IMG/VR virus record: IMGVR_UViG_3300017766_003306
Span: 5,587-69,586 of that record
Direction: 5' to 3' (one strand)
Length of the DNA: 64,000 nt
From: a virus
Taxonomy: Duplodnaviria; Heunggongvirae; Uroviricota; Caudoviricetes
The notes under the pieces were generated by a model. That model saw only the letters and a list, made by a program, of their open reading frames with translations. It was not told the origin of the DNA and ran no database searches. Positions 10,724 to 36,852 of this stretch are shown here, piece by piece; the first letter of the stretch is position 1, and each line of letters starts with the position of its first letter. A program made the position numbers and the translations under genes.

Positions 10724-13700
10724 CTAGAATCTAGCATCATTTTTCATAAATCTACCAATACTTGTAGAAATATGACCTATGCTAGATGCACTCCCGCCTG
10801 ATCCGTTTTGAACTGCGATGCGTTCAGCTAAGAATGTAGAAGCAGAGGGTAAGTTAGTTGTGTACGTTGATTTAACTAAAGTATCTGTTGTACCGTCTGC
10901 ATTATGCACATACGCTTCGACTACAACAGGGGAGCCGTTGTTTGCGTCGTACCCTGCACAAGCAATCTTAAGCTCTACAAGTTGAAATGCTTGAATCGCA
11001 ATACCTGTATCTACTTTCTGCAACGTACCGCTTCCTGTTCTTCTTACTGCTTGCCAGTTTACGTCATTTGTATCTTTGAATAACCCGATCATATCTGTAA
11101 TATCAGCAAGAGAATTACTTGCTAATGAGTTTACTTGACTACACATCCCTACAAATAATCTACAAGTAGCATCTAACGTAGCAGACTTCACAACATTTAT
11201 AGAGACGTTAGAGAGCGTACCGCTCACGTCTGAATTGAATGTAAACGTGTTTGCATCTACGACTGTTATTGTGTAGTTTCCGTTTGTAGATACTCCTGTA
11301 GGGAAGTGAAGCTCGTACACACCGCTACTTAATCCGTGACCTGTGACAGTAGCAGTACACGCTAATAAAGATCTGTTAAACGTCCCGCCCAATCTTTGCT
11401 GAAAGACTGTCGTAAACAAGCTCTGATACAAGAACCCTGCTGATTGCTGACTCGTTGCTGTCCCTCTATGGTATCTAGCTACTGTAGGTCTAAGACTCGC
11501 TACTAAGTTTGCAGTAGTTACGTTCTGTCCTGCTGTAGCAGACGTTAGAAGGTTAGACGCTACAGAGCTTTGATTCCCTACAGTTAGAATGTGTCTTGGG
11601 ACTGCTTGAGCAGGGCTTGCAGTAGATACTACCCCTTGACTTACTGATAAGTTTTCTTGAGCTATTGCACCGTTTAAAGATGCGATCTGTACACTTCCCC
11701 CCCATCCCCAAGAAGATCGAGTGTTTAACCCTAACCCCTCAGAAGATACAAACCCTGTAGGCACATCAGGTTCGAGTGTAGTCGTTGATCCGTAAGATTT
11801 TCTTGTGTTCTTAGGGATGAAAATAGTAAATCTACCGTTTCGATTCAGACCCAGCTCACTCTTGTTTTGAAAAGGGGCTTTAGCGTCGTACCGCTCCCCT
11901 AGACCTTCAATGAAGTTATGCCGTAAACTTATTCTGCCCCGTTTTTTTATAGAAGCTCCGTAGTATTTATTAAACTCAGGAACCCATTTTTGCTTAAATC
12001 TAAGCGTACCTTGATCATAAGTCCAAGTAATCCCTGTGTCTAACGTGCAATAGTTTCTATCATCTAATGCAGTAGTTAAGACGATCTTAGTAACAGTTAA
12101 AGCCCCTGAAGCACTACCGCTAGCTACAGTGTTGAACGTAAATGTGTTAGCATCTATGACTGTTACAATGTACTCGTCATCGACTAATAGAGCATCGTCA
12201 AAGTCTATTCTATATCTGGTATTGTTAGTCAAACCGTGGGCTACTACGTTTGCTGTGCATAGCATAGCTACTCTATTAAACGTCCCTGAAACAGTAGTTT
12301 GTAAATCTGATAATGTAGGGTAAACAGATCTCGAAGGTTTAAATACTTCTACTGAACCTATTGCAATAGTTCCTGATTCTACAGTGTTCAAAGTAGCTAC
12401 AGTAGAACTTACTACAGTTATAGGGAAGTTACCTTTAACTGCTCCCCCTGTAGGGAAGTTGACCTCATACGTTTGACCGTCTATCAAGTTATGGTTTGAA
12501 GGGAAGGTTAGCGTTGCTAAAGTCCCTGAACGACTGTAAGTTCCGTTAGATGCACCGTATCTTATGTAATGAGGAGACCCTGTTCTTTCCCCTAACTCAT
12601 CAAGACTGAATCCCCAATACGACGTAGCCCAAGTGTCTTGAGCTAAGTAAGTAATCGAGTCATCTCCTGTTGTAGGGAAGTCTGCTTCTGTAGCGAATAC
12701 AGCAGGGACGCTAGCGTGGTTGTACGCACTTGGGTAGTGGTTAGACGTTAAACAGTCAAAGAAGACAAAGTTAAGTCTGTTTGATTCCCAATACACTCTA
12801 CTCATTTGTATGTCTGTAGATCTAGCTACGATAGCCCCTTTAGGGAGTTGAGTAGAACTTATAACATCAATATCGGGGACTGTAGGGGCAGTTAAAGAAC
12901 TGTTATATCCGCAGTTCTCAAAAGTCGTGTTTCCGTCTAAAATAATTTGAGAACAGTTATCAAACTCTAAACCGTTCTCTCTAATGTTTTCCCAATACCC
13001 GCCCCAGTGGCATATCGTTGTTGAAATGATTTCAAGTCCTGAAGTGCTGAGTCTTTGGTTACTTTGGGCTTTAAATCCGTTACGGCAGTTAATGTATCTA
13101 GGGTTCCAAACGTGTATGTTAATCGCTTGGTCTACTATAATCGCATAGTTACTCATGCCTCTAATTTCAGGTTGCCATAGTGTATTTCTACCTACAGAAT
13201 CTAAAGCAGGAGACCCATCAGGGTTGTCTAAATCTCTACTCCACTTTAAGCCGTCTACTCGTTTAGTTGGGTGTAATTCTCCCCCTAACCATTCGATCGC
13301 TACACCCCCTAAATTGAAGCTCTGAGCATTAGAAGTAATACAAGCTTGACCGTCTAGCAAGGCTGACTCTGCCCATCTCAAACGGGTAGAATATCGAGAA
13401 GTCGTTATCCACTGAGTCCCTCTTGTCTCAAACAATGGGGCATTAACTGGGAAAGTACCATCAGGGAACACAATACGCTGACCTACAGACGCATTCGCTA
13501 AAGTAGTGTTTAGTAACGTAGCGTTCGCTACGCCGTCTTGCGTTAAAGCTAAAGGGGCTACAGGGGTTAATTTATTTATAGTAGTCTTGTCTGCAGGGAG
13601 CATTAAGCTTGCATTAGTCGTGCTTCCTGAAGGGATAGTTGCGTTTGTACCAGTACTACTTGTTACTATTCCATTAGTGGGTGAGGCTGTATATGCTAAG

Positions 13701-13786
13701 TTTGTAGGGGTGTTTAAAGAGATACCTCCCCCAATCTCAACTTCAACTATATTTTCTGTTAAAGTAAGCTCTAATACGTTACTCAT
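10724..13786 (-). CDS. tail fibre / tailspike protein with beta-helix-like central region and triplicated ~55-aa repeat
   Basis: 1020 aa, Ser/Thr/Asn/Gly-rich. Three internal repeats share the pattern TFNR..L.CTA.V..HGL....Y...F.........Y.ITVVDANTFTFN...SGT. C-terminal ~150 aa homologous to the C-terminus of ORF 14215..15000. Confidence 0.7.
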   Translation of the reverse strand: MSNVLELTLTENIVEVEIGGGISLNTPTNLAYTASPTNGIVTSSTGTNATIPSGSTTNASLMLPADKTTINKLTPVAPLALTQDGVANATLLNTTLANASVGQRIVFPDGTFPVNAPLFETRGTQWITTSRYSTRLRWAESALLDGQACITSNAQSFNLGGVAIEWLGGELHPTKRVDGLKWSRDLDNPDGSPALDSVGRNTLWQPEIRGMSNYAIIVDQAINIHVWNPRYINCRNGFKAQSNQRLSTSGLEIISTTICHWGGYWENIRENGLEFDNCSQIILDGNTTFENCGYNSSLTAPTVPDIDVISSTQLPKGAIVARSTDIQMSRVYWESNRLNFVFFDCLTSNHYPSAYNHASVPAVFATEADFPTTGDDSITYLAQDTWATSYWGFSLDELGERTGSPHYIRYGASNGTYSRSGTLATLTFPSNHNLIDGQTYEVNFPTGGAVKGNFPITVVSSTVATLNTVESGTIAIGSVEVFKPSRSVYPTLSDLQTTVSGTFNRVAMLCTANVVAHGLTNNTRYRIDFDDALLVDDEYIVTVIDANTFTFNTVASGSASGALTVTKIVLTTALDDRNYCTLDTGITWTYDQGTLRFKQKWVPEFNKYYGASIKKRGRISLRHNFIEGLGERYDAKAPFQNKSELGLNRNGRFTIFIPKNTRKSYGSTTTLEPDVPTGFVSSEGLGLNTRSSWGWGGSVQIASLNGAIAQENLSVSQGVVSTASPAQAVPRHILTVGNQSSVASNLLTSATAGQNVTTANLVASLRPTVARYHRGTATSQQSAGFLYQSLFTTVFQQRLGGTFNRSLLACTATVTGHGLSSGVYELHFPTGVSTNGNYTITVVDANTFTFNSDVSGTLSNVSINVVKSATLDATCRLFVGMCSQVNSLASNSLADITDMIGLFKDTNDVNWQAVRRTGSGTLQKVDTGIAIQAFQLVELKIACAGYDANNGSPVVVEAYVHNADGTTDTLVKSTYTTNLPSASTFLAERIAVQNGSGGSASSIGHISTSIGRFMKNDARF

Positions 13787-20961: not shown

Positions 20962-21465
20962 CTAGTTACTTATTCTATGTTCGCTGATAGTGTGATGCTT
21001 CTCAAATATCTTAGGCAGATTATATTCTCTATCAGTGAAATCTTTTAATAAGTAAAAGACAGCATCTCTGCCTAAAAATAAGCCCTTTCTGTACTCTTCA
21101 TTTAAAACTAGATCTACTTGTTTTTGTACTAAAACTTTTAACTCTTCTAAAGTAGACGCAGGAATATATCTAGGGGGGAGTGAGTAGGTAGCAATGACAT
21201 TATGATCTTTATCGTAGAACTCAAGGTCACTGAAGCCGTCCAAAATCTGACCTGTCCCTTGCTTTACAATAGCTAGATCGTGATACTGTCTAGCGTCAAA
21301 TACGCAATCATAGCTATAAATACGCCCTGCATCCCACACATTAACTTGATGCCATTTTAAAGTAACGTCGTAAGACACTAACTTGTTCAGTACTCTATTT
21401 ATTTCTTCCCAGTTTTCGTGTACTCTAGGCTTATCCCCGTACAACATCTCTAAAGTAATTTCCAT
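20962..21465 (-). CDS. hypothetical protein
   Basis: 167-aa ORF directly downstream of rtcB. Confidence 0.4.
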   Translation of the reverse strand: MEITLEMLYGDKPRVHENWEEINRVLNKLVSYDVTLKWHQVNVWDAGRIYSYDCVFDARQYHDLAIVKQGTGQILDGFSDLEFYDKDHNVIATYSLPPRYIPASTLEELKVLVQKQVDLVLNEEYRKGLFLGRDAVFYLLKDFTDREYNLPKIFEKHHTISEHRISN

Positions 21466-21474
21466 TAGTCTTCT

Positions 21475-23598
21475 TTATCCTTTTATACATAATACTTGTT
21501 TTAACTTTGCGACGATTTCTACTAAGTCTTCTTGGGATCTCATCACATCTTCAATGTTTTTATACGCTGAAGGGGTCTCGTCTAGTATCTGTAAATCTGC
21601 TTTTCTACACTCAACCCCTTGAGTATCTAATGCGTGTTGCTCTAAAGAGACGAGCTTCTTTGCTTGTGTTCTACTCATTACTCTTCCTGCTCCATGCGAG
21701 CATGAACAAAAAGATTCCTCGTTACCTAGACCACGCACGATGTAAGAAGCGTTCCCCATATTTGAGGGGATAATGCCCAACTTATCTTTTTCAGCATTCA
21801 CAGCCCCTTTACGAGTCACATAGACATCTTTTCCGTAGTGTCGTTCTCTACTGACATAATTATGGTGGCAATCTACAAGCTCTACTTCTCTCGTAAACGT
21901 CAATGTAGCATCTCTCAGCTTTACTAAAACACGTCGCATCATTATGTTTCTATTCATCTGAGCATACTTCTGACACCAATCTAATGATCTTATGTATTCA
22001 TCAAAATAATTACTTTCTTCTGTGAGATAAGCTAAGTCTCTATCTACTAAAGTTATTCCCAATTGTTCCATATCTTCTTTAGCTTTGCTTATGTAGTAAG
22101 TACCTACACGATTTCCTATTCCTCTACTCCCTGAGTGCAACATAACCCAAACACATTGCTCTTCATCAATACAGATCTCTATGAAGTGATTACCTCCCCC
22201 AAGAGTCCCTAATTGCTTATAAACAGCATTGTGCGTTATGCCTGATTTTTCTTCTATGTACTCGTACCCTGATTTTAAATATAAGTTAAATTGATTAGAC
22301 ACTTTATCTTCTACTTCATCATGCTTACCGAACCCTACAGGTATAACCGATTCTAGGTCTAATCGTAGTTTTGATAAGTCATTGGGTAGATCAGAAGCCT
22401 TTAAACTCGTCTTTACCGCCTGCATTCCGCAGTTACCTGTAATAAACACATTCCCTGCACGTCTAGCTACAAAAAACCCCGAAGGGACAGTGAAACAGTA
22501 CTCTAAGCCATCAGAAGAAGGGACGAAAGTCATAGAAGTTTTAGGAGTTCCGCATATCCCTACTTTAACATCAGTATTTTTAAAAACTCTATAGTCTACT
22601 CCACTATCTCTATGGTCTATTTTCAAGTAGCTTCTATATCCTAAAGCAGACATCGCATACTGAACAAAATCCGCAGATTCTTTGTTTCTAGTGAAGTATA
22701 CTTGGTCTTTCATGTTTCCATCCCAATACATAATCTCATCTACTATTACTTTTAACTGGTCTATAGAAGCTTCCCAATAATTTAATACTTTATTAGTTGT
22801 AGGAGACGCAAACGAGAACTCAGTCACCTCTTCTTGTGTTGATATGTTGTACTCGCTGTAAGTTATCCCTGCATTACACAATAGCTCTCTGATTCTGACT
22901 TTCTTTCCGTCTTTCTTTACTCGCACTACGGCTCTTTTTGTGTTTTCATTTCGTATACACCCGTCCGCAGATACCATAACCGCTACTCTAAGCTGTGCGT
23001 CGGTCATTTCTTCAATCTTAGTAGTGATAGTAGGCGTAAAGCAGGTTAGAAATCTCCCCCTAAACCCTAAAACTAACTCTGAATGCTTCTCATATAGCTC
23101 TTGTGCAGATATACACGCATACTTAGAAAACTTATAAGACCTATCGTGCTTGTAGTATAGAACTTTATGGTCAGGACTTAGCATTTGGTCTACGCCGTAT
23201 TTTGTTCGTACATGATAAAATCCGCTAGAAGGTTTCTTTATATATCTTGTAGGGGTAACGTAGCTAGCTAGCCCTGTATCAGGAGAAAACTGCATCACTT
23301 TGGAGCCTGAATACTCAGACATTTTAACCCACCCGTTAGGAGATAGAAACTCTGTGTCTTTATCTAGGCAACCTATGTCAACCCCAACAGAAGCAGGAAT
23401 AATAGCCTTGTCAGTAGCAATAACACTCCCAACACACGCCCCTTTGCCCAAGTGGCTGTCAGGCATCGCAGAGACCCATTTATGTATGAAAGGCATATCT
23501 GCTAAGTTCTTGAGTTGTTGTAGTGCTTGATCTTCTAAAGGAACATAATCTATCCAAGCTTTGATAAGATTTCCTCTATCTGTTTTAATTAGTTTCAT
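21475..23598 (-). CDS. rtcB: RtcB RNA 3'-phosphate ligase containing an intein
   Basis: Extein motifs GGGNHFIEI, HSGSRGIG, CHHNY, SHGAGR. A 313-aa insertion (C77..N389) sits in the conserved VGVDIG|CGM site. Confidence 0.85.
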   Translation of the reverse strand: MKLIKTDRGNLIKAWIDYVPLEDQALQQLKNLADMPFIHKWVSAMPDSHLGKGACVGSVIATDKAIIPASVGVDIGCLDKDTEFLSPNGWVKMSEYSGSKVMQFSPDTGLASYVTPTRYIKKPSSGFYHVRTKYGVDQMLSPDHKVLYYKHDRSYKFSKYACISAQELYEKHSELVLGFRGRFLTCFTPTITTKIEEMTDAQLRVAVMVSADGCIRNENTKRAVVRVKKDGKKVRIRELLCNAGITYSEYNISTQEEVTEFSFASPTTNKVLNYWEASIDQLKVIVDEIMYWDGNMKDQVYFTRNKESADFVQYAMSALGYRSYLKIDHRDSGVDYRVFKNTDVKVGICGTPKTSMTFVPSSDGLEYCFTVPSGFFVARRAGNVFITGNCGMQAVKTSLKASDLPNDLSKLRLDLESVIPVGFGKHDEVEDKVSNQFNLYLKSGYEYIEEKSGITHNAVYKQLGTLGGGNHFIEICIDEEQCVWVMLHSGSRGIGNRVGTYYISKAKEDMEQLGITLVDRDLAYLTEESNYFDEYIRSLDWCQKYAQMNRNIMMRRVLVKLRDATLTFTREVELVDCHHNYVSRERHYGKDVYVTRKGAVNAEKDKLGIIPSNMGNASYIVRGLGNEESFCSCSHGAGRVMSRTQAKKLVSLEQHALDTQGVECRKADLQILDETPSAYKNIEDVMRSQEDLVEIVAKLKQVLCIKG
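22432..23370 (-). mobile_element. intein (313 aa) with LAGLIDADG-type homing endonuclease motifs, inserted at the RtcB catalytic Cys
   Basis: Starts CLDKDTEFL (block A-like), ends ...VFITGN followed by +1 Cys of CGM; internal LRVAVMVSADGC and LKVIVDEIMYWDGN resemble LAGLIDADG motifs. Confidence 0.7.
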
Positions 23599-24442: not shown

Positions 24443-26224
24443 TCAGTACACCCAAGAAGCCCCAAGAGAAGGGTTTGGAACTCTAGTTGTTCGTCCGTCA
24501 CTATCTATTTGCGTTCTTATTGGATAGTCTGTTTCGCTATCTTCTTCTTGTAGATTATAAAGAACTCTAAATAAGCCAATTAAGCGGGTAGACAGACATA
24601 CAAGCTCATCTAGTGTATAAGACTCCAAGAACCCCCCAGTATGCTCTTCCCCTAATCTAGGGCTTAAGTGGCGTACTCTTAAAGCAGTGTGCCTATGTAA
24701 GTCAATTAGAAATAGACCTAAACAATTCCGCAATACTGACTCTACCTCACGTTGAGTTCCATGTGCAATCCCGATCTGTGTAAGATCACGCTCCAATAGA
24801 CGGGCATAAACATGTTCAGGTATTACTATAGGTCTATCCCCTACAGTTAGATTACTTATCTCTAAAACTTTATTCAGTATCGGCAGTCTAAGTTCTCTCC
24901 GCTCTCTTAACAGAGTAGCCCACTCCCTATACCTGCTATCTTCTTCGTCTGATGATCTTTCTTCTTGGGGTTGTTCTTGTCGATGCTGTTCGTTTCTTCT
25001 TATTTCTTCTCTGATTCTCACTTCTTCCCTATGTCTTCTAGTATCTAAATGTTCTGCTATAGATTGTCTACGATCATCACTCATGTGTACCCATTCATCT
25101 AAATCAATGTCAGCAGTGAGAACGAGAGGCTCCCCTGTTCTAGGATTAACGCCTCTGCTAAAGATTCTATGTGTATGGGGTGGCTGTAGGGTATGTCTAC
25201 TAGACCACCACGAAGTCCCTATAGCTCTTCCATTATGTGCAGTTCTCCAAACTTCATCTTCTTGTTCTGTTTGAGATATGCCCGTATTTTCCTCTTCTGT
25301 AGGTACAGATTCTAAGTACTCAAGAATAGCCCATAATATGCGAGGGTTTAAAGTGTGTAAGTTATCTAAATGCTCACCAACGCCGTATCCATCGTTCATC
25401 GCTAAAGTGTGACAATGAGGTCTATCCATAAACGCTTGACGTACCCTACTCTGTAATCTAAGGTACATTTCGTCGGAATACATATGTATGGGAAAATTAT
25501 TCCTACGATTTAATTTTAAAAACTCATCGTAATTTTCTATATTACGCGGATTCCAATTCTGTGCAAACGTTGGAGTACGTTGTCTTTCTTGCATGTCTCT
25601 CCAATATATCTCTTCTTCTTGTGTTAGTAGCGTAGAAGATTCGTCAACATACTTACCCCCCAATTCAAGCCCTTTTAGACGTTTATCTAATAACTCAAGG
25701 TAGTTTAGTTTGGGGGTTGAATTAGGCTCTATGATAGCCTTTATGAGAGATATTTGGGCTTCTGTGCAATTAGTTAGATTTCTCTTAAGGATTACCCTAC
25801 AATGCTGATCTGTACCTCTCCACACAGCAGTAATGGACTCTTCAGGTACTTCACTGATTACTTTTAGTAGCTCTAATCTAGCGATTGCGTCTCTTACTGC
25901 TTCTTCTACTGTTTCGGGAATACTGCACGGCTGTTCGGGAGAGTAAGACATGATATACTCAGGGATTTCTAAGTTTTCGATACTAGATTTTATTGTTTCA
26001 TAATACGCTTGAACTTCTGCATTGTCCCCTACCCAAATACTCTCCTGTGTGAGCATATTAGGATATAAGCTTAACACATCTAAGCAAGTAGTGTCTTCAT
26101 GTTTTTTATGGGGGATTACGTCTTCTTGCAAGCTTTCAAGTAAATATAGATTATCTTCTGAATAATCAATACTTGAAGGCTTACGTTTATCTTCTCTGTT
26201 AAACCAACCGCTAAAAGATTTCAT
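24443..26224 (-). CDS. hypothetical large acidic protein
   Basis: 593-aa ORF, Glu/Arg-rich helical stretch. Confidence 0.45.
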   Translation of the reverse strand: MKSFSGWFNREDKRKPSSIDYSEDNLYLLESLQEDVIPHKKHEDTTCLDVLSLYPNMLTQESIWVGDNAEVQAYYETIKSSIENLEIPEYIMSYSPEQPCSIPETVEEAVRDAIARLELLKVISEVPEESITAVWRGTDQHCRVILKRNLTNCTEAQISLIKAIIEPNSTPKLNYLELLDKRLKGLELGGKYVDESSTLLTQEEEIYWRDMQERQRTPTFAQNWNPRNIENYDEFLKLNRRNNFPIHMYSDEMYLRLQSRVRQAFMDRPHCHTLAMNDGYGVGEHLDNLHTLNPRILWAILEYLESVPTEEENTGISQTEQEDEVWRTAHNGRAIGTSWWSSRHTLQPPHTHRIFSRGVNPRTGEPLVLTADIDLDEWVHMSDDRRQSIAEHLDTRRHREEVRIREEIRRNEQHRQEQPQEERSSDEEDSRYREWATLLRERRELRLPILNKVLEISNLTVGDRPIVIPEHVYARLLERDLTQIGIAHGTQREVESVLRNCLGLFLIDLHRHTALRVRHLSPRLGEEHTGGFLESYTLDELVCLSTRLIGLFRVLYNLQEEDSETDYPIRTQIDSDGRTTRVPNPSLGASWVY

Positions 26225-28230: not shown

Positions 28231-29787
28231 TTATATGTTAAACGCCATAGCAAACGTAGATAAGCTCTCATTGAACTGACCGACGTAAGGTACTTGACCC
28301 GTAGTTCTTACAATCCCTGTCGAGATGTCAATAGTTACGTTCAAGTTATTCAAGAAGAATGATCTCTCATCGTCGCCTTCTTGCGTAAGGATAAATGGCT
28401 CTGCACTAGCTTCAATGTATACGTCTAACCAAAAAGCTCTCATAGACTGAACATTAACCATTGCACGAGAAGGGCGTATTGTACTTCCCCCTAAACGAGC
28501 CGCACCGAAGCGTTCATAAAATCTGTTATTACACAGTTTTCTAAACTCTGTTGCTTGGTCTATTTTGTTCATGCTTCTGAAAGAATCATCAGGGATACCT
28601 AAAGCGTTAGTCTTGTACGTCGTTACGCCTCGTGTAATAGTCACTCTCGAAGCATCACGAGTGTTTTGAAATACAATACCGCCCGCAGTCTCTAAAGCGT
28701 CTATTTGAAGCTTAGTATACTCGTAGCCCGCAGGGAAAGCTACTAAGGAAGGATATTGTTGATTGAAAAAGGGAAGAGACGCTAATGCTACTCCGCCATA
28801 AGCGTCGTTAATGTTAATCGTAGATACAGGAACGTAGTCAGCAATAGGTGCGTCTTGTATCAACTTTAGAGTGTTAATAGCTACAAAATCAGCAGTAGCT
28901 AACGAGGGGAGTTCACGAATCGCTACGCCTTTCCCTGAAGTATTAGATACTTTGCCAAAACAAGGGTGTACTAATACACGGCTGTTTAGGGCAGATAATG
29001 CGGTTATTTGGTTAGCGTAAGTATCTACTAAAGGCTGAATAACGTATCCGTCTAAGATGATATTCTCAGCATTAAATCTTGACTCTAACAGAGATCTAAC
29101 TAAAGAAGCATCTAATCCTTGATGGAGTAACGTATATTTATACTGAACGTTATCGGGGATAGCAGAGACAGTAGTAGAGTTTACTGTAGCATTACCCGCT
29201 CCGCCTGTTACTTCTGTTATCGTTGCACCTATTCCCGCTACGCTTCCGAATACCCCTAAGAACGTAGAGTTAAGCTCTGTTCCTAATTGGGTAGAAGTGA
29301 GGGTTAATGTTGCAGATGACTTAGATAATGAGAAAGGTAAATCTATGAATGCTCCTGCGTAAGCAGATTCTACTAAAGTAGCTAAAGCCGTAGCTGTAGT
29401 TCCTTTAGGTACGAATACATCTCTTGTACCATTGAAAGCACTTCCAACTACTACTTTCAAAGTACCTTCTTCTGTAGACGTACCTGAGAACTCAATAGTC
29501 CCAGTAGATGCAGAAGCCCCCGACGTAGGCTCTGTTACGGGTATGATATCAATTCTACTCTTAGTGTTGATTGCTCTAATACGCTTATACATCGTAGCAA
29601 TCATAGATTTTCTACCAAATAAAGCGTTTACTACGTTCACATCAGTTAAGTTAGGGTACAAAGTATTCGCTGTAGCTGTCCCTGAAGATAGGAAAGAGCC
29701 AATAAGTAAGATATTCTGAGGGCTGTTTACAGTTACAGGAGTCTCTCCGATAATAGTTTGCGTAAACTTGGGTCGTGTTGAACTCAT
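28231..29787 (-). CDS. putative tail sheath protein
   Basis: 518 aa; N-terminal pattern TVNSPQNILLIGSFLSSGTA...NALFG resembles sheath N-termini (T4 gp18-like); followed by tube-sized ORF. Confidence 0.5.
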   Translation of the reverse strand: MSSTRPKFTQTIIGETPVTVNSPQNILLIGSFLSSGTATANTLYPNLTDVNVVNALFGRKSMIATMYKRIRAINTKSRIDIIPVTEPTSGASASTGTIEFSGTSTEEGTLKVVVGSAFNGTRDVFVPKGTTATALATLVESAYAGAFIDLPFSLSKSSATLTLTSTQLGTELNSTFLGVFGSVAGIGATITEVTGGAGNATVNSTTVSAIPDNVQYKYTLLHQGLDASLVRSLLESRFNAENIILDGYVIQPLVDTYANQITALSALNSRVLVHPCFGKVSNTSGKGVAIRELPSLATADFVAINTLKLIQDAPIADYVPVSTININDAYGGVALASLPFFNQQYPSLVAFPAGYEYTKLQIDALETAGGIVFQNTRDASRVTITRGVTTYKTNALGIPDDSFRSMNKIDQATEFRKLCNNRFYERFGAARLGGSTIRPSRAMVNVQSMRAFWLDVYIEASAEPFILTQEGDDERSFFLNNLNVTIDISTGIVRTTGQVPYVGQFNESLSTFAMAFNI

Positions 29788-30615: not shown

Positions 30616-30689
30616 TGCCCCGTACAAGACTCGAACTTGTGACGTTCCGCTTAGAAGGCGGATATTCTATCCATCTGAATTAACGAGGC
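30616..30689 (-). tRNA. tRNA-Arg (anticodon TCT)
   Basis: Cloverleaf GCCTCGT/ACGGGGC acceptor, anticodon loop CTTCTAA, T-loop TTCGAGT. Confidence 0.8.
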
Positions 30690-30703
30690 GTAAAAATAAA
30701 AAA

Positions 30704-30776
30704 TGCCCAAGACAGGATTTGAACCTGTGCATTTCTTGCTTACAAGGCAAGTGCCTTACCGCTTGGCTACTTGGGC
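30704..30776 (-). tRNA. tRNA-Thr (anticodon TGT)
   Basis: Acceptor GCCCAAG/CTTGGGC, anticodon loop CTTGTAA, T-loop TTCAAAT. Confidence 0.8.
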
Positions 30777-30781
30777 AAAAA

Positions 30782-30854
30782 CGCCTTCACCGAGATTTGA
30801 ACTCGGGTTACTACCGTGACAAGGTAGCGTCCTAGACCACTAGACGACAAAGGC
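30782..30854 (-). tRNA. tRNA-Asp (anticodon GTC)
   Basis: Anticodon stem CTACC/GGTAG, loop TTGTCAC, T-arm CCGAG-TTCAAAT-CTCGG; acceptor has two G-U pairs. Confidence 0.7.
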
Positions 30855-31064
30855 ATAAAAGGTGCTAGTTTCAGTTGACTCAGCCACTAGCAAACACGTC
30901 AGGTTTTACATCTATGAAGACGAGAGCCTATGTCCGCTCTAAGACACTCAGCACCCTAAGTCGAATGTTATCTGAGATTTTGTTTGACTCACTTACAAGT
31001 TACAATAAGTGAGTAGCTGAGCGTAATTGAAATCGGGATCGCCAACAACAATATGCCCTAAGTA

Positions 31065-31136
31065 TTGCACTACCTAGAATCGAACTAGGGCATGGGTGAA
31101 TATGAGCCACCTGCTTTACCTCTTAGCTATAGTGCA
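31065..31136 (-). tRNA. tRNA-Met (anticodon CAT; Met or lysidine-Ile cannot be distinguished)
   Basis: Acceptor TGCACTA/TAGTGCA, anticodon loop CTCATAT, T-arm CCTAG-TTCGATT-CTAGG. Confidence 0.65.
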
Positions 31137-31146
31137 GTATAAAAAA

Positions 31147-31228
31147 TGCGTAGGGTTAGATTTGAACTAACGTATCACTAGGAGTCAGATTTACAGTCTG
31201 ATGTCTTTAACCACTCGACCACCTACGC
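31147..31228 (-). tRNA. tRNA-Tyr (anticodon GTA), long variable arm
   Basis: Acceptor GCGTAGG/CCTACGC, anticodon loop CTGTAAA. Confidence 0.8.
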
Positions 31229-31243
31229 ATATTTTAAAAAAAT

Positions 31244-31332
31244 CGGGTAGTGTAGGATTTGAACCTACGGAGGTTTTTACACCTCGCTAGTTTTCAAGAC
31301 TAGAGCCATAAACCGAACTCGACCAACTACCC
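31244..31332 (-). tRNA. tRNA-Ser (anticodon TGA), long variable arm
   Basis: Acceptor GGGTAGT/ACTACCC, anticodon loop CTTGAAA, variable arm GAGGTGTAAAAACCTCC. Confidence 0.8.
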
Positions 31333-31353
31333 ATCAAAGCAAACTTATTAAAC

Positions 31354-31500
31354 GTTCTACTTATCGGGGTACTTTCAGTTTTTATCCTTTCCGAGCCACA
31401 GATTAAATAAATACAACAAGAACACATTGCTCAGACTCCTTCAGTAGCGACACTGACCCCCTCCTCGCGGTTTTTCTCTCAGTACCCCGATAAGTAGAAC
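31354..31500. repeat. 20-bp perfect inverted repeat (GTTCTACTTATCGGGGTACT) flanking a 107-nt segment inside the tRNA cluster
   Basis: arm1 31354-31373, arm2 31481-31500 exact reverse complement. Confidence 0.85.
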
Positions 31501-31537
31501 TATTTTTATTTTCAAAGAACGAATAATTAAGTAAGTA

Positions 31538-31611
31538 TGCTTCGTACAAGACTCGAACTTGTGACCCGCTCCTTATGAGGAAGATGCTCTAACCAACTGA
31601 GCTAACGAAGC
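31538..31611 (-). tRNA. tRNA-Met/Ile2-like (anticodon CAT)
   Basis: GCTTCGTTAGCTCAGTTGGTTAGAGC... acceptor GCTTCGT/ACGAAGC, anticodon loop CTCATAA, T-loop TTCGAGT. Confidence 0.75.
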
Positions 31612-31628
31612 ACTTACTTATTGTATGC

Positions 31629-32366
31629 TTACTTAGGCATGATCTGCGTAAGTGTTGATCCATTACCCATAACTTGAGGCATTTTCCCGTCCCACTTATC
31701 AAGAAACTTCTCTTGAATTAGAGCAGGATTTTTGAGTAGGGCTTTAGCACGAAGCGTCAAAGCTTGAGCATTAGCACGTTCTACGTTGACTCGGTTACGG
31801 GCTGTAGCCTCTTCAATCTCAGCTTTTTGTTTCTCTTCAATAGCTTCTTGAAGCTTGTCTGAGAACTTAGTTCCTGTGAACATTAAAGACTCAACTAAGA
31901 TTAAGCCGTTTAGTTTACTACGAAGACCTACTAAAGTATTCTCACGAACAATATCTCTTTTAGATACAAGCTCGTAAGCTGTAAACTTGCTAGCAGACGA
32001 TTTTAAAGCGTCTAACAGTTTGGGTTGAAGTAGTGTTTGAAACGCATCCCCTTGATAATCTTTAAAAATAGGGATTACAGAAACATCGGGAATCTTGTAA
32101 GTAACGCTTAAGTCCATAGAGACCGTTTGCATATCTCTTGTCTGTACTTGAGTTTCTAATGCGACAGTCGTTTGACGTATGACAAAATCTTCTACACGTT
32201 CTAAAAATGGGTTATAAGTGTAAAATCCCTCTTTCAACAAATTAGGTGAAACTACGCCTTGTGCGACTTTCACGCCACGCTCGCCCACTTCAATCGTCCC
32301 AAAGCACCCTGTTGTCATAAAAGGGGTCAATGCGATTAAGCATAATAATGCCCAATAATTCTTCAT
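31629..32366 (-). CDS. SPFH/band-7 (prohibitin-like) family lipoprotein
   Basis: 245 aa; signal peptide with lipobox LTPFMTTGC; SPFH core followed by coiled-coil (EEKQKAEIEEATARNRVNVERANAQAL). Confidence 0.65.
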   Translation of the reverse strand: MKNYWALLCLIALTPFMTTGCFGTIEVGERGVKVAQGVVSPNLLKEGFYTYNPFLERVEDFVIRQTTVALETQVQTRDMQTVSMDLSVTYKIPDVSVIPIFKDYQGDAFQTLLQPKLLDALKSSASKFTAYELVSKRDIVRENTLVGLRSKLNGLILVESLMFTGTKFSDKLQEAIEEKQKAEIEEATARNRVNVERANAQALTLRAKALLKNPALIQEKFLDKWDGKMPQVMGNGSTLTQIMPK

Positions 32367-34710: not shown

Positions 34711-36852
34711 TTATATATGGGGTTGCTTTGGAGCTTGTTTAGGTAATGGAGTAACAGCATCTTTAGCGGGAGTGTTTGCGGGGTTCATGTTTGGATCTGT
34801 AGCTTCTGTAGGAGTATTACGTTCTACTGGTTTATTTATTGGTGTAGTACCGTAAGGCTCGGGGAAGGCTTGGAAGTCCATATCTATAGCCGTGTTCAAA
34901 GCTTTTACTGCCATATTAGGGCTTACGCCCCCCATTCTATATGCTGTCTCAAAAATAGACATAAGCTCAATCTTGTCAAAGTGATTAAACGCATTAAACA
35001 CGATCTTACAAGTTCTATCTTTCAGCCCTATATGCTTGAGAAGTACGTTGTTTATAAAGTCTTCTAAAGATCTTCTGTAGGGTTTAAAGATTTGATCTTC
35101 TGCCATCTGAATAGCTGAGTGGCTAGTAGCACGGTTATAATCTGCTGACTGACCTAACAAGATAGGGGGAAGTCTGAAAGCTTGTCTAATTTGAGTCTCA
35201 CATTTTTTAACGTAATCCCCAAATAACAACTCTTTACGCTCAACATCATTAAGCTTTACGAACTCTACTTTACCATTTCTTGCAGGGGCATTGCCTTCAA
35301 GCTCTTTAGTTGTGATCCCCATCTGTGAGCGGGTTACAGCTCTTAGCATGAGTATCTTACTTGGCTTAGCATGATTTCCGCCTCTATTAGACATTTGCCG
35401 TCTTAATTGCTCAATGTCCCCTCTGCTATATTTCATGTCAGACATTAAGATTGCTAAACTGGGGATTAAGTTTTCTTTAAATGTCTCTAAGTTTATAGAC
35501 TCAGCTTCAATCTGACCTATAATACTAGCCATTTGGTTTGCCCATATAGGCTCCCCATAGCTCGTAGAATCGTCGATGTCTCTGTAGTGATACAATTCTT
35601 CTGCAATGTCTTTTTTGTTTGTTGTCGGTAGTCCAGAGTACTTGTCTATAATCTCAGGACTTCCCCATTCTACGAAGAACTGTTTATGTCTATAGACACT
35701 ATCAGAGCTAGTCGCTTGCTGATTCTTACCGCCCATTTTATAATACTCAGGCTTCTCCCATAAGTACCGTTTGTAAGATTTTTCTCTTTTAATCTTTCTT
35801 ACAGACCCGCCCCTGATTATCTCATCCTCTACACGCATGATAGATTCTTCTTTGAGTACTCTAACTTGGGTACAAGGAACTCTATACGCTTCGAGTAATA
35901 TCTTATTCTTTGATGAATCTGTAAAGTATCTAAACCCGACAAAGAACTCGTTAAAGCTCTGATAATCACATACAAGCTCTTCTAAGAACTCAGAAAACGA
36001 TACGTTGTAGCTTATGTTTGCTAAGTATTCTTCGAGTATGTCTACTTCTTTTTTTACATTAGGGGGTAAGTCTACAGTAGGGTCTACGTCTCGTTTCTGT
36101 ATAGATACACCTCCCCCTACAATGTTAGATACCATAGCGTCGATACAGGGTCTAAGGGAGGGGCTAGACTTTATAAGGGTCTGCAGTTTCTTGGGGTCGT
36201 AAGTTCTTTTTCTTAAGCCATGCGTTGCTGTCAGTACTCCGTCATAGTCTAAGTCAGTCCACTTCTCGCTATCTAAGTCGTAGTATTTAGATATATCAGA
36301 TTTTAATTTAGTGTCAGGGGTCTCTACTTTTTGCTTTATATTTATTCTATTTAAGATTTTTGAATACTCATCGTCGATCTTATTCAGTAATCTAGGAATA
36401 GCTAATTGCTTGATCGACTCTGATTTTGGAGTAGTGTCGTCAACCTTACTAGACTGTAGAACCTCTTTGACAGCTTTAGATAATTCGTCTTTTCGCCACT
36501 GTGCGATAGTCTCAGCAGGAAGTAATCTACTCACGGTGACTTGAACTTCTACGCTAGGCTCAATTTCGTTACTATTTTCATCTAAGATTGGATCTGTGTA
36601 TAAGATCTCTGATCTATGAACCCTACCCCTGTCTAGTAGGGGAGTATTGTCCCCTTCAATAGATTGACTGTCGTCTAAGTATTCTTCCTCAGTCAAAGCT
36701 CTATAATTACCTATTACCCGCTCTTGCTCGGCTACTATGTCTTGTAGCTCTTCTATATGGGCTTGAGTAGTAGTGTTGATTTCTACGGTTTGTGAAGAGT
36801 TAGGCTTATTCTTCTTGCGGTTTATTTTCATTTTCAGTATGTTCCGATTCAT
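34711..36852 (-). CDS. putative portal / head morphogenesis protein
   Basis: 713 aa, in the terminase-proximal position; Pro/Thr-rich low-complexity C-terminal tail; no motif-level proof. Confidence 0.35.
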   Translation of the reverse strand: MNRNILKMKINRKKNKPNSSQTVEINTTTQAHIEELQDIVAEQERVIGNYRALTEEEYLDDSQSIEGDNTPLLDRGRVHRSEILYTDPILDENSNEIEPSVEVQVTVSRLLPAETIAQWRKDELSKAVKEVLQSSKVDDTTPKSESIKQLAIPRLLNKIDDEYSKILNRINIKQKVETPDTKLKSDISKYYDLDSEKWTDLDYDGVLTATHGLRKRTYDPKKLQTLIKSSPSLRPCIDAMVSNIVGGGVSIQKRDVDPTVDLPPNVKKEVDILEEYLANISYNVSFSEFLEELVCDYQSFNEFFVGFRYFTDSSKNKILLEAYRVPCTQVRVLKEESIMRVEDEIIRGGSVRKIKREKSYKRYLWEKPEYYKMGGKNQQATSSDSVYRHKQFFVEWGSPEIIDKYSGLPTTNKKDIAEELYHYRDIDDSTSYGEPIWANQMASIIGQIEAESINLETFKENLIPSLAILMSDMKYSRGDIEQLRRQMSNRGGNHAKPSKILMLRAVTRSQMGITTKELEGNAPARNGKVEFVKLNDVERKELLFGDYVKKCETQIRQAFRLPPILLGQSADYNRATSHSAIQMAEDQIFKPYRRSLEDFINNVLLKHIGLKDRTCKIVFNAFNHFDKIELMSIFETAYRMGGVSPNMAVKALNTAIDMDFQAFPEPYGTTPINKPVERNTPTEATDPNMNPANTPAKDAVTPLPKQAPKQPHI

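Follow-up and report, generated by a model that had tools for sequence, protein, structure and literature searches.

Why should a phage gene for the RNA ligase RtcB carry more than 300 additional codons in the middle of its active-site coding sequence, and can a functional ligase be made from it? This question is raised by the rtcB gene at positions 21475..23598 (minus strand) of a 64,000-nucleotide stretch of Caudoviricetes DNA (IMG/VR record IMGVR_UViG_3300017766_003306), the whole of which is referred to here as the window. The gene very probably encodes a phage RtcB 3'-phosphate/5'-OH RNA ligase that is interrupted, at the cysteine bridging the metal ions of the enzyme, by a mobile intein consisting of a HINT splicing domain and a LAGLIDADG homing endonuclease domain. 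A first-pass annotation had already proposed an intein at the catalytic cysteine, and this proposal gained support from the predicted HINT plus LAGLIDADG fold of the insert, the occurrence of the same module in unrelated host proteins and the finding that the nearest RtcB homologues are without it.

The RtcB gene and its insert

The frame is unbroken over 707 codons. Pfam RtcB matched the unspliced precursor in two stretches (2.9e-117), and in-silico deletion of the insert yielded a protein of 394 residues and 44.19 kDa, which matched RtcB (PF01139) in one stretch covering profile positions 1-426 with 411.8 bits (E=5.4e-123; cutoff, as gathering score, 27 bits). The gene and the parts of its product are arranged as follows, with residues in precursor numbering unless they are called intein residues.

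21475..23598, minus strand: RtcB precursor gene, with N-extein, intein and C-extein in one frame (707 amino acids, 79.9 kDa; open reading frame list and Pfam RtcB)
23371..23598, minus strand: N-extein, residues 1-76, ending IPASVGVDIG and containing the metal ligand Asp74 (Pyrococcus horikoshii Asp95); the alignment to 1uc2/2epg ends at DI(G/N)C
22432..23370, minus strand: intein, residues 77-389 (313 amino acids, 35.7 kDa), from Cys1 (Cys77) to Asn313 (Asn389)
23047..23370, minus strand: N-terminal lobe of the HINT domain, intein residues 1-108, with block A CLDKDTEFLSPNG and block B GVDQMLSPDHKVLY (23155..23196; Ser65 and His68), from the family alignment and a profile match to 6zgq
22561..23046, minus strand: double-motif LAGLIDADG homing endonuclease domain, intein residues ~109-270, with the acidic residues Asp136 and Asp217
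22960..22989, minus strand: LAGLIDADG motif 1, RVAVMVSADG, residues 204-213
22717..22746, minus strand: LAGLIDADG motif 2, IVDEIMYWDG, residues 285-294
22432..22560, minus strand: C-terminal lobe of the HINT domain, intein residues 271-313, with block F LEYCFTVPSGFFVARR (22459..22506) and Cys292 at its position 4 (F:4), from family conservation
22432..22452, minus strand: block G, NVFITGN, with Thr311-Gly312-Asn313
21475..22431, minus strand: C-extein, residues 390-707 and stop codon, first residue Cys390, from P. horikoshii RtcB alignments, motif coordinates and tblastn

The insert begins with CLDKDTEF and ends with NVFITGN, after which the C-extein opens with Cys390 (codon 22429..22431) in CGMQAVK. 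The description given in the first-pass annotation, 313 residues from CLDKDTEF to ITGN followed by a cysteine, is exact; the two LAGLIDADG-like motifs it had pointed out are those listed above, and its figure of about 44 kDa for the spliced protein agrees with the computed mass. The RtcB hallmark motifs it had named were all located in the frame (GGGNHF at 467-472, HSGSRG at 488-493, CHHN at 577-580 and SHGAGR at 634-639), together with GVDIG at 72-76.

Alignment to solved RtcB structures (1uc2, 2epg) placed the end of the N-extein, VGVDIG-C, on P. horikoshii GYDIN-C98, while the GGGNHF, HSGSRG, CHHN and SHGAGR blocks aligned with Asn202/His203, His234, His329/Asn330 and His404, respectively. 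All six active-site residues of the P. horikoshii enzyme, namely the metal ligands Asp95, Cys98, His203, His234 and His329 and the guanylylated His404 (for their roles see PMC9745838), are kept as D74, C77, H158, H175, H266 and H322 in spliced numbering. The C-extein carries the histidines of GGGNHF, HSGSRG and CHHN as well as the guanylylated histidine of SHGAGR, and in the alignment its first residue, Cys390, occupies both the +1 splice nucleophile position and that of the manganese-bridging cysteine (P. horikoshii Cys98). Since the insert parts the ligand Asp74 from this bridging cysteine, the unspliced precursor would be unable to form the active site. P. horikoshii Cys98, which bridges both manganese ions (PMC9745838), is itself a published splice junction (PMC4150793), and the comparison with archaeal RtcB insertion sites that had been suggested for this gene thus led to the same residue. 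The window protein is an RtcB family member but, judged by its NCBIfam score, not a PRK09588 (Escherichia coli-type RtcB) equivalog, for which it reached 168.7 bits against a cutoff of 407; no record of the exact protein was found.

The residues expected of an intein are in place, with Cys77 as the cysteine or serine nucleophile at position 1, Asn389 as the C-terminal asparagine and Cys390 as the cysteine, serine or threonine at +1. Block B contains the (T/S)xxH motif as SPDH (intein residues 65-68), and a profile match to the AceL NrdHF intein (6zgq) extends across this block with E=2.5e-7. An AlphaFold2 model of the insert (29 sequences) reached a predicted local distance difference test score (pLDDT) of 94.7 and a predicted template modelling score (pTM) of 0.91, with both LAGLIDADG motifs on helices (intein residues 124-136 and 203-216). 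According to this model the insert has a HINT plus LAGLIDADG fold, in which the fold of known LAGLIDADG enzymes was likewise recognised. The endonuclease-containing inteins PI-SceI, PI-PfuI and TliVMA, which stem from archaea and yeast, are only 11-16% identical to the window intein and differ from it in their His-Asn end and their larger size (366-537 residues in the solved chains). The intein, which sits at the canonical catalytic-cysteine site, is genuine and well-formed, and it is probably active.

A patchily distributed family of phage inteins

To place the insert among RtcB genes, relatives with and without it were compared. All twelve RtcB relatives recovered in a scan of IMG/VR have a contiguous VGVD(I/L)G-CGM, and in the eight of these intein-less proteins for which it was computed the extein identity is 55-60%. 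Alignments of intein-less homologues to the window by tblastn end at 23368 and restart at 22431; these breaks are the predicted junctions, with an ambiguity of one codon because both junction residues are cysteines. RtcB proteins that do bear an intein are 33-54% identical to the window protein in their exteins and 35-52% identical in their inteins, and the best intein match (P0035, 52%) lies in an extein of 33% identity. With closer exteins lacking the intein and distant ones containing it, the distribution is therefore patchy, and the mismatch between extein and intein identity is what horizontal homing would produce. A DNA search of the gene against GenBank phages returned short patches at 65-84% identity only and no close relative, and synteny with the IMG/VR contigs bearing the closest RtcB did not extend beyond rtcB itself.

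The closest relative of the N-extein and the first ~69 intein residues (66% amino acid identity, window 23164..23565) was found on an assembled contig (ENA ERZ25073596 NODE_62167; L023, 1-2528). Its likeness to the window stops just past block B, where the open reading frame (ORF) runs on into sequence that is unrelated; HTH_8 and cytidylyltransferase-like genes come after it. Coverage is only 2.4x, and the contig is therefore either a chimera of the assembly or what is left of a truncated intein.

Beyond RtcB, a tblastn search of the insert against GenBank phages retrieved 363 records, 199 of them full length, in which the module is hosted by genes for phage RtcB, PhoH-like proteins, terminase large subunit, primase/helicase, RNA ligase, exonuclease V and ribonucleotide reductase. 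The RtcB-borne matches belong to Pseudomonas phage PS119XW, Bacillus phages JBP901, BCP8-2 and BMBsp2 and Corynebacterium phage Lederberg. Their inteins are of the same family (42-46% identity over the full length by tblastn), share the architecture of the window intein and occupy the same site, VGVDIG^C...ITGN^CGM (^ marking the junction), while their exteins are 35-54% identical to those of the window, the phages are unrelated to the window phage, and the genes carry no intein feature in GenBank, where they are simply called RtcB or RNA ligase. An exhaustive HMMER search over 1.84 billion representatives yielded 3469 proteins at E<=1e-3 and 508 at E<=1e-30, with the module at varied positions in proteins of varied length. 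A word-indexed protein search produced 6 matches with the insert alone and 34 with a profile of eight phage inteins. By the HMMER count the phage intein clade comprises at least 3469 clusters at 50% identity, mostly phage-borne and with the signature Cys1...YCF...TGN. A profile of eight related inserts matched the window ORF at E=1e-136 and detected no second intein copy in the 64,000 nucleotides.

Conservation of individual residues was counted in the family alignment, with denominators that vary by position (175-186). Cys1 was kept in 183/183 relatives and a starting cysteine was present in 166 of the 167 full-length ones. In block B, H68 was found in 185/186 and serine or threonine at position 65 in 176/186 relatives, and the LAGLIDADG aspartates were conserved in 180/182 (D136) and 173/181 (D217). 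Block F follows the pattern YCF..P.G, with C292 in 176/179 relatives, and R303 is nearly invariant (177/178). Block G showed T/S311 in 175/177, G312 in 170/177 and N313 in 175/175 relatives, followed by cysteine, serine or threonine at +1 in 165/167.

The positions entered by the family are also alike. Glycine directly precedes the intein in 149/167 relatives, and the cysteine, serine or threonine after it is mostly followed by glycine (G^[CST]G). Typical sites are the P-loops AAG^SGKS, xTG^SGKT and DMG^TGKT as well as DIG^CGM in RtcB. At the junction the metal loop of RtcB is thus similar to the glycine-rich loop of a Walker A motif, which may explain the presence of a P-loop-seeking intein lineage in RtcB; a comparable idea has been put forward as 'extein switching' (bioRxiv 10.1101/2025.01.02.630785).

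Several relatives displayed more complex arrangements. A protein of 1170 residues (P0055) carries two family inteins (residues 148-450 and 605-928), the first with an EGE^C entry and the end VCGN^C, the second with the end ITGN^S within a GSG^SGKS P-loop. In Escherichia phage 19-1-2 (L005, 2411-5987) the annotation divides the terminase large subunit into three pieces, the first of which holds a family intein, and the later pieces are separated by an HNH homing endonuclease gene. For Pseudomonas phage KIL1 (L006, 1430-4231 and 4862-5957) the annotation gives both primase/helicase and DNA polymerase as joins of two pieces. In these two phages several mobile elements are stacked within essential genes. 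The annotation tables of the seven GenBank phage records examined were without an intein feature.

Inteins turn up repeatedly in RtcB, with 27 known from bacteria and 10 from archaea (PMC4760082), and inteins of RtcB-like ligases have been reported in actinobacteriophages (bioRxiv 10.1101/2025.01.02.630785). RtcB inteins, phage ones included, are already published, and the window intein adds one member. The inteins of P. horikoshii RtcB (PH1602) and of other archaeal and bacterial RtcB proteins share the host enzyme and the insertion point directly before the manganese-bridging cysteine, but reside in cellular hosts, whereas the host of the window intein is a phage. The NCBIfam models for 'intein-containing RtcB family protein', NF052663 and NF038162, scored far below their cutoffs (463.5 against 1050 and 159.6 against 1150) and their matches cover mostly the exteins. 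The window intein is therefore unlike the modelled ones, and on these NCBIfam scores it probably belongs to another lineage than the archaeal and bacterial RtcB inteins.

Splicing route and competing readings

The Gly-Asn C-terminus had been flagged in the first-pass annotation as an atypical splice junction. It does depart from the textbook His-Asn, but it is the norm in this clade: in addition to the conservation of G312 noted above, penultimate glycine occurs in 160 and histidine in 3 of 167 full-length matches, and all complete relatives inspected by eye end in (I/V/L/M)(T/S)GN. In the window intein Gly388 takes the place of the usual penultimate histidine at position 6 of block G (G:6), a residue that is common among inteins but not defining. 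Splicing without it is documented (PMC5050341, PMC7891396, PMC4031507), and mycobacteriophage class 1 inteins are often without it (Kelley et al., PMC5050341).

Two inteins with the same end have been shown to splice. The mycobacteriophage Bethlehem RDF (phosphoesterase) intein (AY500153) is only remotely related in sequence (a search of the two sequences gave E=8e-5, with motif regions alone aligned) and resembles the window intein in its Cys1, its LAGLIDADG insert, its similar length (317 residues), its Thr-Gly-Asn end (G316-N317) and the placement of its block-F cysteine 21 residues before the terminal asparagine (pattern WC(L)xVP.G...LTGN^S), and differs in its host protein and in having serine rather than cysteine at +1. 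It splices to completion, and the substitution G316H slows splicing, with accumulation of precursor (PMC5050341). The AceL NrdHF intein (PDB 6zgq), the closest solved relative, shares Ser65 and His68, a residue other than tryptophan at position 12 of block B (B:12), a cysteine at F:4 followed by a Pro-Gly kink, the Thr-Gly-Asn end and the lack of both assisting histidines (F:13 and G:6). Its splicing takes minutes and is lost in the G145H variant (PMC7891396). In contrast to the window intein, which is contiguous, keeps Cys1 and has a LAGLIDADG domain, AceL NrdHF starts with alanine, is a proven class 3 intein, is naturally split with a separate GIY-YIG endonuclease gene, and is hosted by the beta subunit of ribonucleotide reductase. 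In view of these cases, the GN junction permits efficient splicing and is perhaps even adapted to it; the GN end is a signature of the clade and marks neither decay nor anything new.

The standard class 1 pathway is the default and best-supported route for the window intein, which is filed in class 1 by definition. Along this route Cys77 (intein Cys1) would undergo an N-to-S acyl shift, aided by Ser141 and His144 of block B (intein S65 and H68), and Cys390 at +1 would receive the N-extein via transthioesterification. Cyclisation of Asn389 would free the 35.7-kDa intein, with a basic residue, either the lysine at B:11 (equivalent to Arg69 of AceL NrdHF) or the near-invariant Arg303, probably standing in for the missing histidine. 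An S-to-N shift would then restore the loop VGVDIG-CGM and convert an inactive 79.9-kDa precursor into an active 44.2-kDa RtcB. In co-infection the endonuclease would be expected to cut intein-less rtcB around GTTGACATAGGT^TGCGGAATG, and recombinational repair would copy the intein into the cut allele. The in-silico spliced (empty) DNA site reads ATTCCTGCTTCTGTTGGGGTTGACATAGGT^TGCGGAATGCAGGCGGTAAAGACG. Both splicing and endonuclease activity of the window gene are what we infer from these features.

Several observations weigh against an active, mobile intein in this gene. Pfam, one of the comparisons by which the first-pass annotation had proposed to check its prediction, assigned no Hint or intein family to the insert alone at E<=10, and its LAGLIDADG_3 match stayed below threshold (18.0 bits where 22.5 are required, E=0.0035). 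With Pfam blind to the insert, recognition therefore rests on relatives and predicted structure. Asparagine cyclisation needs an unproven substitute, given that histidine is missing at both F:13 and G:6. At 39.1%, the intein has the same GC content as the DNA around it, which gives no compositional sign of recent arrival, and no close relative of the window phage was found in GenBank, so that polymorphism for presence or absence of the intein was seen among distant RtcB homologues only. As to the first of these points, the missing Hint match is a gap in the Pfam models and not an absence of the fold. Another Pfam match to the insert, to a tailspike domain, was rejected as spurious.

A different chemistry is the alternative that fares best, although we consider it unlikely. 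The intein could splice by a class-3-like or dual route, in which the N-terminal junction is attacked by the block-F cysteine Cys368 (C292, F:4), or the N-extein is passed on by this residue in the form of a branched thioester. Cys1 would then be superfluous or have a regulatory part, such as that of one partner in a redox-sensitive disulfide. [quoted passage not shown] The third is not, B:12 being valine, but the biochemically class 3 AceL NrdHF intein is also without this tryptophan and agrees with the window intein in S65/H68, Thr-Gly-Asn and the lack of F:13 and G:6 histidines (PMC7891396). The definition of class 3, on the other hand, demands that there be no N-terminal nucleophile (PMC2807308, PMC7891396), whereas the window intein has Cys1, and the retention of this residue in every relative counted argues that it is needed as in class 1. 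Cysteine is moreover the second commonest F:4 residue among inteins generally (PMC4031507) and carries no class 3 implication, and in the work of Kelley et al. the related Bethlehem RDF intein counts as class 1 (PMC5050341). The clade joins a class 1 Cys1 with a class-3-type set (Cys F:4, Thr G:5, Gly-Asn end and neither assisting histidine); that this amounts to a hybrid chemistry is unlikely, and class 1 splicing remains the preferred route.

Still less probable is decay, in which the intein would no longer splice for want of its penultimate histidine, no active RtcB would be made and the gene would be a relic. Such a state could be read from GN in place of HN, from the lack of a block-F histidine and from the failure of the Pfam intein models to recognise the insert, and the related contig fragment that is apparently truncated past block B suggests that decay occurs in the lineage. 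We rejected this explanation in view of the frame, which is intact across all 707 codons, the retention of all family-conserved splicing and endonuclease residues in the window intein and of all RtcB active-site residues, and the status of GN as the norm, which extends to members within terminase and primase/helicase genes. Terminase and primase/helicase are essential phage proteins. Restoring the histidine, furthermore, harms splicing in two Gly-Asn-ended inteins (PMC5050341, PMC7891396).

That the 313 residues are a lineage-specific accessory domain kept in the mature enzyme, an ordinary domain without Hint fold having been named by the first-pass annotation as the finding that would overturn it, has the missing Pfam Hint match as its only support and is next to impossible, being refuted by the recurrence of the same module within many unrelated proteins, by an insert that shows the intein fold, begins with cysteine and ends Asn^Cys, by its position between Asp74 and Cys390, ligands that are three residues apart in every RtcB, and by closest RtcB homologues that are free of it.

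Genomic context and implications

The general view of phage RtcB is that it repairs tRNAs cleaved by ribonucleases of the host (PMC7824862). The seven-gene tRNA cluster that had been reported about 7 kb from rtcB was recovered with ARAGORN, 7.0 kb from the start of the rtcB gene and on the same strand:

30616..31612, minus strand: seven tRNA genes, Arg-TCT, Thr-TGT, Asp-GTC, Met-CAT, Tyr-GTA, Ser-TGA and Met-CAT

A role of the window RtcB in tRNA repair is plausible, the local basis for it being solely this proximity of 7 kb to tRNA genes. Among the ten neighbouring ORFs scanned there was no RNA-repair partner (archease, kinase/phosphatase or other ligases). Of the two tRNA-Met(CAT) genes, one may encode an initiator tRNA or the precursor of tRNA-Ile2. 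Corynebacterium phage Lederberg (L003, 2285-5449) likewise has rtcB near a tRNA gene: a tRNA-Leu gene and an HNH endonuclease gene directly follow its intein-containing rtcB.

The start of rtcB overlaps the stop of an upstream 205-residue ORF by 4 nucleotides (ATGA, 23595..23598), and a downstream 167-residue ORF begins 10 nucleotides past the rtcB stop (21465..21475). Neither flanking ORF has a Pfam match, and from this arrangement all three genes look co-transcribed. Immediately upstream of the tRNA cluster lies a gene for an SPFH/Band 7 family protein (31629..32366, minus strand; Pfam 6.7e-26). Tail sheath and portal genes are present (28231..29787 and 34711..36852), and the window phage is therefore myovirus-like. 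Its portal protein is at most 26% identical to that of any GenBank phage, and five of ten large ORFs were without a PHROG match, including those of 1020 residues (10724..13786) and of 593, charged, residues (24443..26224). The window phage represents a poorly sampled lineage.

Should the hybrid chemistry be true, the three junction cysteines (Cys1, the cysteine at F:4 and the manganese-binding cysteine at +1) could make maturation of the ligase redox-sensitive. According to Tori and Perler, class 3 inteins reportedly diverged from standard phage inteins. Hybrid chemistry, if true, would bear on whether class 3 inteins arose by such divergence or by convergence (PMC7664689).

For the enzyme itself, the intein parts two metal ligands that are three residues apart in the mature protein, and ligase activity must therefore depend on splicing. 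The gene is accordingly of value to annotation as an intein-containing RtcB with a 44-kDa mature product and not as a 707-residue fusion protein. The same applies on a larger scale to a large clade that is missed by the Pfam Hint models (one member scanned) and unmarked in the GenBank phage records examined, and fast-splicing relatives with a Gly-Asn end are useful as protein-ligation tools. The family as a whole moves among G^[CST]G sites, in P-loop ATPases on the one hand and in the metal loop of RtcB on the other.

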